Assembly: GCA_964372195.1 (NCBI GenBank)
Contig: CAYJPX010000004.1
Coordinates: forward strand, 14,432-78,431
Length of the DNA: 64,000 nt
Source: an uncultured Phycisphaeraceae bacterium
GTDB taxonomy: Bacteria > Planctomycetota > Phycisphaerae > Phycisphaerales > UBA1924
Reading direction: 5' to 3'
The translations under genes were made by a program, and so were the position numbers. The notes under the pieces are model-generated. The model ran no database searches and was not told where the DNA came from. It was given only the letters and a program-made list of their open reading frames with translations. Of this stretch, positions 15,171-34,614 are shown one piece after another. Each line of letters begins with the position of its first letter. The first letter of the stretch is position 1.

Positions 15171-15238
15171 GATTCGAGATTTGAGATTTGCGATTTGAGA
15201 TTCGAGATTCGAGATTTGAGATTTGAGATTTGAGATCT
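15171..15238. repeat. Heptanucleotide tandem repeat, (GATTYGA)n, about 9.5 units
   Basis: Read directly from the sequence: gattcga gatttga gatttgc gatttga gattcga gattcga gatttga gatttga gatttga gatct. The tract is about 30% GC in a roughly 70% GC genome. Confidence 0.95.
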
Positions 15239-15371
15239 GGGCTCCTTGCGTCAAGCGGCGCCCGTTCCGGATCTATCCAACGCCACCGCCGGAGCCTGCC
15301 CCCTCCGCATTCTCGCTGCCCTCCCGGGGAATACAGTCGCCCCGTCCGAGCTTCACTCGGAGGAGGCCCGC

Positions 15372-31218: not shown

Positions 31219-32028
31219 ATGTTGAACTGGTTGCGAGACTTGTCCCGTTCCTGCTGTGGCGGCGGGGCGGCCTGGAGGCGGCTGGGTTCGACTGGAACTG
31301 CGGCGGAGGTTCTGGGGGCCGACCTCCGACTGGCGATCCAGTTCGCTGGCGAGCATCATGGTCTCGTCAAACGATGCTGGCCCGAACTCGCGGCGACCGC
31401 GGTGTGGGGCTGGCCCGGGGTCGAAGACGATGCCCAACTCATGGCGGCGGCCGCCGACCAGCTCGCGCGTCACACGACCGGGGAGGACGCTCGGGGATAC
31501 CAGCGGCTCGCGCGGCGGTTCAAGGCCGGGGACAAGCGGCATATGCGCCGGGAGGTGCGCTACCGGCTGGATTGGCCCGACTGCGCAGGGCGGATCAGGT
31601 TCGGTGTGAAGTTTCCAAGATGTCGTGACCAGTTCCCCGGGATCGACCTCCGCATCGAAGGGCCCCGGGAGCGGGTGGGGCTGACTGTCGCATTCTGGTC
31701 CTCCGCGCTCGGCGGTGGTTTCGTGCTGCGAGAGCGCGACGCCAGGTTCATTGCCCCAAGCACCGGCGACGAATCAACCCCGATTGTTGGGGTGCTGACC
31801 GGCATCCGGACTGAGCGACTTGGCGTGCTGAGTTGGTGGCAGTGGACCGAGCACGGCCACGGCGGGCCGCAGTGGCCGTCTCCCCGATCGCAGGTCGTAT
31901 CGCTGGAGGACCAGCAACTGCTGGATGAGGCGCTGGGCATTGCGCTCAGGGAGATCGAGGCGAGCGGCTCGTCGGGGGAGGTGATTCTGAACTCGTGGCG
32001 TGCGTCAGCGGATTACCGATTCCTCTAG
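31219..32028 (+). CDS. Hypothetical protein (no recognisable family)
   Basis: 269-aa ORF with an ATG start. Coding-like but with lower GC3 than its neighbours. Its TAG stop and the convergent rdgB TAG share the palindrome CTAG at 32025-32028. Confidence 0.45.
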   Translation: MLNWLRDLSRSCCGGGAAWRRLGSTGTAAEVLGADLRLAIQFAGEHHGLVKRCWPELAATAVWGWPGVEDDAQLMAAAADQLARHTTGEDARGYQRLARRFKAGDKRHMRREVRYRLDWPDCAGRIRFGVKFPRCRDQFPGIDLRIEGPRERVGLTVAFWSSALGGGFVLRERDARFIAPSTGDESTPIVGVLTGIRTERLGVLSWWQWTEHGHGGPQWPSPRSQVVSLEDQQLLDEALGIALREIEASGSSGEVILNSWRASADYRFL

Positions 32029-33311
32029 GAATGGCGGAGGAGCAAGCGCAGCGATCGCAGCATTCGCTGGGCCGCTGCGCCCCGGTGGCTCAGCCGGTTC
32101 TTCTCCTCCGGCGGCAGTTCCGCGCTGGTGCGCACAAACATGGGCGCGACAAGAAACAACGGGTCGTAGCCGAAGCCGTTGTCTCCCCGCGGCACCTCGC
32201 CCCGCAGGCCGATGCGGCCTTCGAAGGTGCCGCGGGAGGTGGCGAGGATGGGGGCTTGATTCTCCGGGGCGGGGCACTGTGGGCCCCCTCTTCTTCTACC
32301 GGGCCTCCTTTCCCCAACCCCTTCCAGACTGCCGGCCGCTTGGCTTGCCCGCTCAACTTCCTCTCCACCGGCCCACGGGTAGTCCAGCCAACGCCCGACA
32401 AGCCCGGCGCGCACCGGGTTCAGGCCTGTGTACTCCAGCTTTGCGTAGAACTCCTCTCGGTCCCGGATGATCTCGTCCCTGTACTCATCCTGCCATAGCC
32501 TCCCCGAGCGCCCTCGAAGTCGGTTGACCTCCCGGCTGGAGAACGACTTGATGCTCTGCATCAACCAGGGGAGGCTTGGCCAACGGCCGGCGCAGACCTC
32601 CACCGGAGTGAACAGCATGTGGACATGGTCCGGCATCACGACGACCAGGTGCAGTCGGATCCGCTCGGGATGCCAGTGCAGGCAGGCGTCCAGCGCGATC
32701 GTCCGCTCCGCCTCGGTGAGCGTTCCGTTCTCCAGACAGAAAGTGATGAAGTAGGTGTGGCCGCCTTTCTCCCAATGGGGGAGGAGGTCGGTGTGGCGGA
32801 TGGTGAGGTCGGGGCCGGTCAGGAAGCGTGGGGAGAGAGGAGGCTCAGTAGAAGAGGAGGGGGCCCAGAGTGCCCCGCCCCGGAGGGGGGGAGAGGCCAA
32901 GACCATCTGGCAGACGAAGCGCGCGGTCCGCTGCGCCGGCGGCACGCCCTCCAGCTCCCGCAGCAGCCTCGCGTTGTTGGCGGCATCGCGCTGGGGGCGG
33001 GTCAGGCCGGTTTCTTCGCCGTCGGTCGAGTAGTGGCTGCTGATGACGCCCGGCGCCCCGCCCAGCGCGTCGACCTCCAGCCCCGAGTCGTCGGCTAGGC
33101 AGGGCAGGCCTGTCTGCCGGGCGTAGGAGAGGGCCTTGATGGTCGCGTTGGCCTCGAAGGTCCTGCCGGTCTCCTCGGGCTCGGTGAAGTGCTCGTGGCC
33201 CGGCAGGTCTTTGAGGCCGAGGAACTCCACGCCCGGCAGGGCCAGCATGGCCCGCAGTTCCTCGACCTTGTGCGGGTTGCCGGTGGCGATGACGATCCGG
33301 TCGGGCGGCAT
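32025..33311 (-). CDS. rdgB: RdgB/HAM1-type dITP/XTP pyrophosphatase reading frame carrying an in-frame RAYT (Y1 transposase-like) insertion
   Basis: aa 1-140 are IVIATGNPHKVEEL, ETGRTFEANA, LADDSGLEVDALGGAPGV and ARFVC. aa 355-428 are FEGRI, GFGYDPLF and LSHRG. aa 141-354 are foreign (see the mobile_element entry). It is one uninterrupted 428-codon ORF. Confidence 0.75.
   Translation of the reverse strand: MPPDRIVIATGNPHKVEELRAMLALPGVEFLGLKDLPGHEHFTEPEETGRTFEANATIKALSYARQTGLPCLADDSGLEVDALGGAPGVISSHYSTDGEETGLTRPQRDAANNARLLRELEGVPPAQRTARFVCQMVLASPPLRGGALWAPSSSTEPPLSPRFLTGPDLTIRHTDLLPHWEKGGHTYFITFCLENGTLTEAERTIALDACLHWHPERIRLHLVVVMPDHVHMLFTPVEVCAGRWPSLPWLMQSIKSFSSREVNRLRGRSGRLWQDEYRDEIIRDREEFYAKLEYTGLNPVRAGLVGRWLDYPWAGGEEVERASQAAGSLEGVGERRPGRRRGGPQCPAPENQAPILATSRGTFEGRIGLRGEVPRGDNGFGYDPLFLVAPMFVRTSAELPPEEKNRLSHRGAAAQRMLRSLRLLLRHS
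32262..32315. repeat. Left inverted repeat of the RAYT cassette (REP-like)
   Basis: The core at 32266-32299, GGGGCGGGGCACTGTGGGCCCCCTCTTCTTCTAC, is the reverse complement of 32848-32881 with 2 mismatches in 34. Read on the other strand it starts GTAG. Confidence 0.9.
32830..32885. repeat. Right inverted repeat of the RAYT cassette (REP-like)
   Basis: GTAGAAGAGGAGGGGGCCCAGAGTGCCCCGCCCC (32848-32881), extended imperfectly on both sides. It contains the 16-mer CCCCGCCCCGGAGGGG (32873-32888). Confidence 0.9.
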
Positions 33312-33334: not shown

Positions 33335-34558
33335 ATGCACGACGACCGCTCCGCCATCGCCCACGCCGCCGCCGACTCGCTCGAACGGGCGGCGGCCGAG
33401 GGACGCCTCGCCGCCACCCCCGCCCTCGCCGGTTTCGACGGCTTCATCGACTCGATCATCCGCGTGGTGGACCGGCGGCGGAGCATGCGGATGGACGACT
33501 TCGACGCGATCTCGACAATCGCCGGGTTCGCCGGGCGCGTCGCGGCTGCCGCGGGCAAGAGCGCCAATATCGAGTTGGTGGTTGAGGAGGACCGGTTCGG
33601 CGGCAACGGGCCGTTGTACGCCGGGGCGCTGGGGCGTCTGGGGCTGCCGACGACCTACCTCGGCGCGGTCGGGCGCGACGACGCTTCGAGCGAGCTGCTG
33701 CCGATCTATGGGCCGTTCGCCGCGAGGTGCGAGGAGGTCGTGCCGCTGGCCGCCCCGGCCCACACCGATGCGCTCGAGTTCGACGATGGCAAGATCATGC
33801 TGGGCAAGACCGCGCCGGTGCAGGCGGTGACCTGGGGCCGGCTGATCGAGCGGGTGGGGCTCGACGGGCTGCGTGCCAGGTGCGAGCGCAGCCGGCTGAT
33901 CGGGATCGTGAATTGGACGCTGTGTGGGGGGGTGCAGGGGATCTGGGAGGGGCTGATCGACCAGGTGCTGCCGGCGATTGGGGAGCAAGGAGGCCGGGAG
34001 TCCGGGCCTGGAGTGCCCCGCCCCGAGGGGACGGAGAGGGGCAGGCGGGTGTTCATCGACCTGTCCGACCCGGCCAAGCGGACGGACGGGGACCTGCTGT
34101 CGGCCCTCGGCGCGCTGCGGCGGATGGACGGGCTGGCGCCGGTCACGCTGGGGCTGAATCTCGCCGAGAGCGAGCGGGTGGCGCGGGTGCTGGGTGTGGA
34201 TGCGTACGCCGACGCGTCGTCGCTGGGCGAGGGCGTGCGGATCGCGGCCGAGCGGATCCGCGAGCGGTCGGGGCTGGCGTGCATCGTCATCCACCCGCGC
34301 GAGGGGGCGGGGGCCGCCGACCGGGACGGGGGCAGCGCCTGGTTCGAAGGCCCCTTCACCGCACGCCCCCGGCTGTCGACCGGCGCGGGCGACCACTTCG
34401 GGGCGGGCTTCAGCTTCGCCCAGGTGCTGGGGCTGCCCATCGAGCAGAGCCTGGCGGTCGGGTGCGCCGTCAGCGGGGCGTATGTGCGGGACGCGGAGTC
34501 ACCGGACTTACCCAGATTGGCGGGGTTCCTTCGAGACCTGCCGCGGGCAGAGGGGTAG
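33335..34558 (+). CDS. Ribokinase-superfamily (PfkB / ADP-dependent kinase-like) sugar kinase
   Basis: The C-terminal STGAGDHFGAGF (GAGD anion-hole motif), the overall length and the glycine-rich N-terminal motif FGGNG. It carries an in-frame REP-like insertion at about 33981-34043. Confidence 0.7.
   Translation: MHDDRSAIAHAAADSLERAAAEGRLAATPALAGFDGFIDSIIRVVDRRRSMRMDDFDAISTIAGFAGRVAAAAGKSANIELVVEEDRFGGNGPLYAGALGRLGLPTTYLGAVGRDDASSELLPIYGPFAARCEEVVPLAAPAHTDALEFDDGKIMLGKTAPVQAVTWGRLIERVGLDGLRARCERSRLIGIVNWTLCGGVQGIWEGLIDQVLPAIGEQGGRESGPGVPRPEGTERGRRVFIDLSDPAKRTDGDLLSALGALRRMDGLAPVTLGLNLAESERVARVLGVDAYADASSLGEGVRIAAERIRERSGLACIVIHPREGAGAADRDGGSAWFEGPFTARPRLSTGAGDHFGAGFSFAQVLGLPIEQSLAVGCAVSGAYVRDAESPDLPRLAGFLRDLPRAEG
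33981..34043. repeat. Solo REP-like element inside the kinase coding sequence
   Basis: GGGGAGCAAGGAGGCC...GGGCCTGGAGTGCCCCGCCCCGAGGGGACGGAGAGG aligns with the right RAYT repeat (TGGGGAGAGAGGAGGCT...GGGCCCAGAGTGCCCCGCCCCGGAGGGGGGAGAGG). It encodes GEQGGRESGPGVPRPEGTERG. Confidence 0.7.
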
Positions 34559-34614
34559 GGCCACACCGGCTGGAAGCCGGTGCCACTGCGGGGGGGACCC
34601 CCCTACACTCCGCC

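Follow-up and report, generated by a model that had tools for sequence, protein, structure and literature searches.

This report concerns one gene in a stretch of 64,000 nucleotides of DNA from an uncultured Phycisphaeraceae bacterium (the whole 64-kb stretch is called the window here). The gene is rdgB, which encodes a pyrophosphatase of the RdgB/HAM1 family, and it is interrupted in frame by a REP-associated tyrosine transposase (RAYT) gene that is itself bracketed by inverted copies of a sequence resembling a repetitive extragenic palindrome (REP). Positions 32025–33311 on the minus strand form a single open reading frame (ORF) of 428 codons, with an ATG start and no interrupting stop, in which residues 1–140 and 355–428 are the two halves of RdgB and the RAYT lies between them. 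The parts, in the order in which they are translated, are these:

32892–33311, minus strand: rdgB N-terminal part, codons 1–140, with ATGNPHK, EPxETGxTFxxNA, ADDSGLxVDALGGxPGV and ARFVC, ending in the β-strand of residues 129–139.
32818–32885, no strand assigned: 5′ (gene-proximal) REP-like arm, with its core at 32848–32883 reading GTAGAAGAGGAGGGGGCCCAGAGTGCCCCGCCCCGG on the plus strand; it encodes the linker ...RGGALWAPSSSTEPP..., predicted to be disordered.
32370–32786, minus strand: RAYT core (a TnpA-REP-like Y1 HUH nuclease), codons 176–314, with LPHW...TYFITF, the HUH motif, the WQ motif and the catalytic Y294 in EYTGLNP.
32262–32329, no strand assigned: 3′ REP-like arm, an inverted copy of the 5′ arm with its core at 32264–32299 (2 mismatches); it encodes the linker ...RRPGRRRGGPQCPAPE..., predicted to be disordered.
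32025–32249, minus strand: rdgB C-terminal part, codons 355–428 and the stop, with the return β-strand ILATSRGTFEGRI, then GFGYDPLF and EKNRLSHRG; this is the second Ham1p_like stretch.

Both outer parts are recognised as RdgB. The Pfam model Ham1p_like (PF01725; cut-off 22.5) scores 175.6 bits on the fused protein and matches it in two stretches, of which the best covers residues 6–141. The NCBIfam RdgB models also match in two stretches, with scores of 131 against a cut-off of 145.35 (TIGR00042) and 176.8 against 234 (NF011397), the match being split by the 214-residue insert. The gene order Khk/PfkB-like gene, rdgB, dnaK is common to the window, to one homologous locus that has no insert (L081) and to two that have it (L083 and L085), and the ORF is therefore taken to be the orthologous rdgB of the organism. 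An open frame alone is weak evidence here, given that the window is 70% GC and has many long spurious ORFs. Merged gene calls in high-GC DNA are ruled out by the host halves that flank the insert on both sides. The identical 428-residue protein occurs on nine contigs, of which the three places displayed belong to three different ENA assemblies, and this makes an assembly artefact or a hidden sequencing frameshift unlikely.

The insert was identified by profile, motif and structure. NCBIfam NF047646 (REP_Tyr_transpos) matches residues 180–313 with 88 bits against a cut-off of 80, covering model positions 5–145 of 146, and phmmer matches the insert to PDB entry 4er8_A. The HUH motif is HVH (H229-V-H231, at 32619–32627) and aligns with H59-M60-H61 of E. 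coli TnpA-REP. The catalytic tyrosine is Y294 (32430–32432) in LEYTGLNPV, which aligns with Y115 of the same protein, and N298 aligns with the catalytic N119 in helix D of 4er8. An earlier account made from the DNA letters without database searches (the sequence-only reading) had described the single 428-codon ORF, the RdgB motifs in residues 1–140 and 355–428 and a RAYT/Y1 enzyme between them, all of which is borne out. It had placed the catalytic tyrosine in LWQDEYRDEIIRD (LWQDEY), which is the WQ motif. Its observation that the RAYT part has no start or stop of its own agrees with a codon listing: no in-frame ATG, GTG or TTG occurs from the 5′ arm to the LPHW motif, and there is no stop within the ORF. 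Only a single RAYT was found in the window by tblastn.

Two other kinds of element were considered for the insert. IS200-type profiles score below threshold on it (Pfam Y1_Tnp 20.8 against 23; NF033573 14.3 against 55), and an IS200/IS605 insertion sequence was rejected on these scores and on the single copy in the window. An intein was ruled out because splicing motifs were not found: Pfam gives no Hint or intein family on the fusion protein, and in the 45 homologues listed the junction residues are variable, with neither the Cys/Ser/Thr pattern at the N-terminal junction nor the His-Asn plus nucleophile pattern at the C-terminal one.

The structure of the fusion was predicted with AlphaFold2, using an alignment of 120 sequences. 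The mean pLDDT (predicted local distance difference test score) is 90.3, with both domains confident and the N-terminal part of RdgB above 90. Values below 50 are confined to residues 145–155 and 332–350, which are the peptides encoded by the two repeat arms. In the model the insertion site is the turn of a surface β-hairpin made by strands 129–139 and 355–367, in agreement with the position between the ARFVC and FEGRI strands that had been proposed from the sequence. Foldseek against the PDB aligns the RdgB/HAM1 structures 2pyu, 1k7k and 3tqu over the whole chain, across the insert (TMt 0.84–0.88), and the RdgB fold, as modelled, closes around the insert. For the insert itself Foldseek gives 4er8_A, which is TnpA-REP bound to REP (TMt 0.73, rmsd 3.4 Å), ahead of the IS608 and ISDra2 transposases.

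The two arms (32262–32329 and 32818–32885) make an inverted repeat of 68 nt that is 84% complementary. The GTAG-tagged 36-nt core is present in exactly two copies in the window, in opposite orientation and with 0 and 2 mismatches, a result obtained in 0 of 100 shuffles. These are the inverted repeats that had been noticed from the sequence as 34 bp, extendable to about 55 bp. Each had also been said to begin with GTAG, the tetranucleotide that precedes the REP hairpins of E. coli TnpA-REP. The tag is present, 7 nt away from a 5-bp stem, but the stem folds no better than shuffled sequence. Folding of the mRNA (32240–32905, minus strand) predicts a stem of about 70 bp between the two arms, with the RAYT coding sequence inside it (z = −3.9 against 20 shuffles, with the minimum free energy and centroid structures in agreement). 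This stem is a possible site for RNase III or for control of translation.

Every insert-bearing locus that was read has its own inverted repeat around the RAYT, namely the window, five other rdgB loci (L001, L002, L083, L084 and L085) and one valS locus. The repeats at rdgB are:

Window and L001: CCGGGGCGGGGCACTCTGGGCCCCCTCCTCTTCTAC
L002: GGGGGGGGCTTCCAGCCCCCCC
L083: CAGGGGGGCGGGCTTTCCAGCCCGCC
L084 and L085: (C)AGTGGCACCGGCTTCCAGCCGGTG

In the L002, L083 and L084/L085 types each arm is a hairpin of 8 bp whose centre is constant and whose tag is GTGG or GGAG. Five hairpin types are all fully Watson–Crick paired, with compensatory changes between lineages at five of the eight stem positions (stem pairs were counted by script; the loop of one sequence is one base longer and out of register in the MAFFT alignment). 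The window arms are the weakest hairpin among the cassettes compared. Between the window and L001 the arms (32 codons) are 96% identical in nucleotides, with a synonymous divergence (dS) of 0.08 as against 0.4–0.6 elsewhere, which in this small sample points to constraint on the DNA sequence itself.

In some homologues (P0014, P0040, P0010, P0019 and P0029) tandem arrays of REP-encoded peptide units, from two to eight units long, adjoin the RAYT on one side or both and stay in frame; examples of the unit are GGLSSPRTTQE... and GWKARPP...KARPP.... The REP repeats are amplified within the host ORF with the frame unbroken.

A first protein search with the fusion gave 120 best hits, from metagenome-assembled genomes (MAGs) of Phycisphaerales/Planctomycetota. 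An insert of 181–359 residues is found at the same alignment position in 107 of them, and the remaining 13 have 9–37 residues there. The insert-bearing protein clusters, at least 107 in number and 45–88% identical, are all single in-frame ORFs. The substrate- and metal-binding motifs of RdgB are conserved in close to 100% of the 107 homologues; the full set of H229, H231 and Y294 is retained by 101, and N298 by 104. Between the window and L001, which are 86% identical, the RdgB parts have a ratio of nonsynonymous to synonymous change (dN/dS) of 0.18 and the RAYT core one of 0.14, and judging from these values both halves are under purifying selection in the window lineage. A scan of a genome collection with the single protein mostly matched the generic GFGYD motif, and gave 2 insert-bearing loci and 78 ordinary rdgB genes.

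RdgB–RAYT fusions are also filed under a eukaryote (P0028, eukprot g6047.t1), Nodularia spumigena (P0049) and Leptolyngbya sp. PLA3 (P0088). These proteins are of the Phycisphaerales type, and the labels are probably due to contamination or mis-binning in the source records.

The RAYT and its host gene have followed different histories. Among the 107 homologues, the identities of the RdgB parts and of the RAYT parts are hardly related (Spearman 0.14); the window protein, for example, has RdgB/RAYT identities of 88/88% to P0003 and 88/53% to P0004. Divergence of the two parts is decoupled, which is not the long-term vertical inheritance by which RAYTs have been characterised. The clearest case is the pair P0005 and P0015. 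Their RdgB parts are 98% identical, while their RAYTs are only 45% identical and their REPs are different. The DNA flanking the insert, about 1 kb on each side, mostly has 29–30 matches in each 30-nt window and the gene order is identical, so the two sources are effectively one species. Divergence begins directly after ...TTGGCGGGG and stops directly before ATCCTCTCCACC..., and at least one cassette has therefore been cleanly replaced by another.

Loss and gain are also seen. A search with an insert-deleted query gave 120 further short RdgBs of 199–248 residues, 65–84% identical, the named ones being from Phycisphaerales/Phycisphaeraceae MAGs. The neighbour-joining tree of RdgB (102 filled and 123 empty sites, n = 225) requires at least 38 presence/absence changes, compared with 75 after shuffling; all trees here are neighbour-joining trees on 144–204 columns, so that counts of gains, losses and host switches are rough. 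The closest filled/empty pair in this tree is 95.6% identical. Most empty sites, a kind of site that the sequence-only reading had proposed to look for in related rdgB genes, are clean minimal turns (L081 is an empty site), and a few retain scars: P0084, at L081, keeps half of an L083-type REP, and P0387 keeps the outer linker residues of a P0003-type cassette. At third codon positions the GC content (GC3) of the RAYT core falls 5–17 points short of the host gene's in the six homologous loci for which it was measured; the window values are 0.85 for the core and 0.94 and 0.87 for the two RdgB parts.

The sequence-only reading had set a mobile cassette against an old fixed domain. The first half of the latter is correct, in that the segment is old and lies at the same site in orthologues across the order. 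It is not fixed, given that the repeats are lineage-specific and that gains, losses and swaps are many, all of which indicates a mobile or exchangeable cassette.

The arrangement is not confined to rdgB and is found in other genes too. An exhaustive search with the RAYT core gave 9617 relatives, of which the 150 best representatives were analysed, and 59 of these 150 have at least 90 extra residues on at least one side. Host halves were identified by running Pfam and BLAST on the RAYT flanks. On both sides of the RAYT they belong to valyl-tRNA synthetase (ValRS; about ten, all at one site), PurH (about eight), PriA, RecG, DnaK, BirA, several DNA methyltransferases and a SAM methyltransferase; a recognised host domain on one side only was found for ThiE, a LOG-family protein, a hydantoinase and an Fe–S protein. 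These nested relatives (proteins P0121–P0257) are 45–55% identical to the window RAYT, and the named ones come from Phycisphaerales/Phycisphaeraceae MAGs. The residues adjoining them are typical translated REP pairs, such as GVSPA/GRDARP, GVPPV/RRDACPT and GFQPV/RLEAGAT. One valS case, from a Phycisphaeraceae MAG (L091, 3001–6909), was read at the DNA level and has its RAYT within 27-nt inverted repeats, TCT(A/G)GTGGGGCGGGCGTCTCGCCCGCC. When the RAYT core was the query of an ordinary protein search, the hits were all stand-alone RAYTs of 97–241 residues and did not include the protein from which the query was taken; this search seems to favour hits of query length.

On a neighbour-joining tree of 234 RAYT domains there are 35 host changes, compared with 102 after shuffling. 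RdgB-nested RAYTs form several large pure clades and PurH-nested ones a single clade. This clustering of host labels suggests that lineages mostly keep to one host gene, with occasional switches.

Our preferred interpretation, to which we give a probability of about 0.7, is that the ORF is the orthologous rdgB carrying a selfish REP–RAYT–REP cassette (a "REPtron"), which occupies an intein-like niche and is translated as a tolerated domain insertion. A REP–RAYT–REP cassette in frame in the surface hairpin of RdgB is also what the sequence-only reading had proposed, and the profiles, fold, repeats, frame and insertion point agree with it. The interpretation is built on the observed architecture and its conservation, the conservation of the arms, the covariation in the hairpins, the presence/absence changes, the clean replacement, the scars and the other hosts. 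The cassette has no start, stop or promoter of its own, and the RAYT is most likely made by read-through translation of rdgB as part of a protein of about 46 kDa with two domains. In it the halves of RdgB would re-associate into the normal HAM1 fold, from which the RAYT domain would hang by the translated REP arms as a pair of disordered linkers. The comparisons indicate that both enzymes are maintained by selection, and both are probably active: RdgB would be a dITP/XTP pyrophosphatase, and the RAYT a HUH/Tyr single-stranded DNA (ssDNA) nuclease-transferase that recognises its own flanking hairpins.

As for its history, the cassette would belong to an old family at this exact site of rdgB in Phycisphaerales, repeatedly lost (either cleanly or leaving REP scars) and repeatedly gained or exchanged between alleles, with sister lineages living in the same way within valS, purH, priA, recG, dnaK and other genes. 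An in-frame site in a conserved, constitutively expressed gene would supply the element with transcription and translation. We propose that the position also protects it, because an imprecise deletion or a frameshift would destroy the host gene. The cassette could enter the site through the action of the RAYT or through homologous recombination in the rdgB flanks, which are conserved. The distance between RdgB strand and hairpin, which differs between lineages, speaks against a rigid target rule, and the exact cassette boundaries in L083/L085 speak against long tracts of recombination with a diverged donor.

Several observations weigh against this interpretation. The window arm folded alone as ssDNA makes only the 5-bp stem, with a stability no better than that of shuffles. 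Between the RdgB strand and the REP hairpin lie 9 to 48 nt, depending on the lineage, which does not resemble a strict tetranucleotide-targeted insertion. A catalytic residue has been lost in 6 of the 107 homologues, which indicates some decay. A dispersed population of the window repeat, which the sequence-only reading had proposed to test for, was not seen: in the 64 kb there are the two flanking copies and one degenerate copy (L001 has the same extra copy), and a metagenome scan with the repeat core gave only three contigs with one unrelated chance match and nothing relevant, so that the RAYT may have little to act on. Fused translation is deduced from the lack of an own start and stop and from the conserved frame, and an uninterrupted second rdgB elsewhere in the genome is possible. 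The protein search returned hits near the length of the query each time (the fusion retrieved long proteins, the core short RAYTs and the insert-deleted query short RdgBs), and the ratio of filled to empty sites can therefore not be read from the hit lists. To these may be added the roughness of the tree counts.

A stronger version of the cassette interpretation is tentative, and we put it a little short of an even chance. It holds that this REP–RAYT–REP lineage behaves like an intein but without splicing: having no start or stop and a length that is a multiple of three, it would be translated within surface loops (of RdgB, ValRS, PurH, PriA, RecG, DnaK, BirA and others) and would actively excise and re-insert, or "home", at the same site by means of the RAYT acting on its own REP arms. 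If this version is true, the unit mobilised by RAYTs in Phycisphaerales includes the RAYT gene itself, and nesting stands in for the promoter, the ribosome-binding site and the protection from deletion of a free-standing gene.

Of the competing explanations, the one that survives best is that the ORF is only a carrier: the RAYT would be produced separately, by internal initiation, by proteolysis of the linkers or by processing of the mRNA at the arm stem, and RdgB function would come from fragment complementation or from rare excised alleles. We regard this as improbable. The predicted disorder of the linkers and the predicted pairing of the arms in the mRNA are in its favour, as is a sub-clade (P0004, P0009–P0011, P0015 and P0019) with a conserved Met about 20 residues upstream of LPHW (DMS/T..N). 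No Met is conserved throughout the family, however, and the window has no ATG, GTG or TTG between arm and RAYT core. The frame is also kept through linkers of very different length, including the tandem REP arrays of P0014 and P0040, which is expected only if ribosomes must read through to the C-terminal part of RdgB.

Slightly less probable again is that the RAYT is an accessory domain, domesticated within RdgB for the benefit of the host. It might, for example, tether nucleotide-pool sanitation to ssDNA hairpins at replication forks, or the RdgB dimer might pair two monomeric RAYTs. E. coli RdgB is a homodimer. The purifying selection on both parts, the conserved catalytic residues and the age and spread of the arrangement would all be expected of a co-opted domain, and the E. 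coli TnpA-REP is monomeric, with the coordination of its two cleavages unresolved (PMC3479197). This explanation is disfavoured by the unrelated hosts and by the turnover: the same RAYT group nests in ValRS, PriA, DnaK, PurH, BirA, ThiE and DNA methyltransferases, hosts unrelated in function, some of which are monomeric enzymes; close Phycisphaerales RdgBs lacking the insert are about as many as those having it, with the 38 or more changes noted above; and a cassette has been swapped for one only 45% identical in near-identical strains. The lower GC3 of the RAYT than of its host gene also speaks against it.

The fallback of the sequence-only reading was that a transposon had recently disrupted rdgB and had by chance left the frame open in stop-poor, high-GC DNA, so that the gene is a pseudogene in the making. 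This could draw on the 70% GC of the window and its long spurious ORFs. It has a negligible probability and is excluded by the 107 diverged clusters with the same in-frame architecture, the dN/dS values for both halves, the intact RdgB motifs, the fold that closes in the model and the identical sequence on nine contigs.

The nearest known system to the cassette is the E. coli REPtron, in which tnpA-REP (yafM) is flanked by REP/BIME sequences (BIME, bacterial interspersed mosaic element) (Ton-Hoang 2012, PMC3333891; Messing 2012, PMC3479197, PDB 4ER8), together with the RAYT–REPIN systems of Pseudomonas (Bertels & Rainey). Like these, the window encodes a Y1 HUH nuclease that resembles TnpA-REP in profile and fold, in its HUH motif and in a Tyr that corresponds to Y115; inverted copies of a short repeat of the hairpin-forming kind, tagged at the 5′ end with a G-rich or GTAG-like sequence, lie on either side of the RAYT; and the RAYT is single copy in the sequence available. 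It differs in three ways. Known RAYTs are stand-alone and intergenic with their own start and stop, whereas this one has neither and is nested in frame in a housekeeping ORF. Known RAYTs are described as vertically inherited over long periods (10.1101/2021.07.10.451892), whereas the history of the rdgB RAYT is decoupled from that of its host gene. Finally, known RAYTs serve dispersed REP/REPIN populations, and none of any size was found for the window repeat in the 64-kb window or the metagenome scan.

Inteins with homing endonucleases are a further comparison. These too are selfish inserts in frame at conserved sites of conserved genes, translated with the host protein; they too are sporadic among close relatives and reuse the same site, and the several hosts here include classic intein hosts (enzymes of DNA and nucleotide metabolism). 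Unlike inteins, the rdgB insert has no Hint domain or splicing motifs and presumably stays in the mature protein as a domain insertion, and its enzyme is a HUH ssDNA transposase and not a LAGLIDADG or HNH homing endonuclease. With IS200/IS605 elements (IS608, ISDra2) and IStrons it shares a Y1 transposase with subterminal hairpins, and IStrons also limit the damage to the host gene. IS200/IS605 elements excise seamlessly, which would fit the clean empty rdgB sites. The rdgB insert differs from IS200/IS605 in scoring below the IS200 thresholds, in showing no multicopy identical elements and in having no tnpB, and from IStrons in that harm is avoided by staying in frame and not by RNA splicing. 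Intragenic REPs and Rickettsia palindromic elements (RPEs) also occur in frame in ORFs (Di Nocera 2013, PMC3733652, and references therein). They are short palindromic repeats translated as extra surface peptides in functional proteins. A solo repeat copy in the neighbouring Khk-like gene is an instance of just this, and so are the REP-encoded linkers. Those insertions consist of the non-coding repeat only, whereas in rdgB the transposase gene itself is in the in-frame insert.

TnpA-REP/RAYT proteins, the REPtron layout and intragenic in-frame REPs and RPEs are thus already known (PMC3333891, PMC3479197, PMC3733652). Full-text literature searches found no description of a RAYT gene nested in frame in another gene; what they turned up was intragenic REPs, and a survey from which long fusion proteins had been discarded. 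The fusion proteins are on database record but uninterpreted: automatic double names exist, such as "DnaK/REP element-mobilizing transposase RayT", and nested-RAYT proteins are now annotated variously as "transposase", "hypothetical" or "pyrophosphatase".

RAYTs have been described as domesticated, vertically inherited and stand-alone, and their benefit to the cell and the way in which a monomeric enzyme moves DNA are still open questions. The present series brings together a large number of natural RAYTs whose expression presumably relies on a host ORF (at least 107 RdgB clusters, with ValRS, PurH, PriA, RecG, DnaK and others in addition). Their turnover is like that of homing elements, and they and their hairpins co-vary. 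With its many filled, empty and scarred alleles that can be matched with one another, the series offers material for tests of RAYT activity. It also represents a second route, besides inteins, for selfish DNA to live inside essential proteins, and provides natural permissive sites for domain insertion in well-known enzymes.

Further repeats lie close to rdgB. The one related to the cassette is:

34002–34039, no strand assigned: solo degenerate copy of the cassette repeat, with 19 of 23 core positions and 83% identity over 36 nt, in the Khk/PfkB-like ORF 33335–34558 (plus strand).

It lies in frame in a variable loop of the Khk-like protein and encodes ...GPGVPRPEG.... It is present at the orthologous place in L001 (at about 9288, with 2 mismatches) and is missing from L081, L083 and L085, where the loop is shorter or different.

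A different REP is found at 34555–34588, at the end of the same Khk-like ORF. It reads GTAG-GGC-CACACCGGCTGGAAGCCGGTG-CCACTG, which is the REP type found on either side of the rdgB cassette in L084 and L085, and its GTAG provides the TAG stop of the ORF. This REP could be left over from a previous type of cassette, or it could be the repeat of a second RAYT at another place in the genome. Elsewhere in the window, at 15171–15250, there is a tandem array of a 7-nt unit, GATTTGA/GATTCGA, which is conspicuous against the 70% GC of its surroundings.

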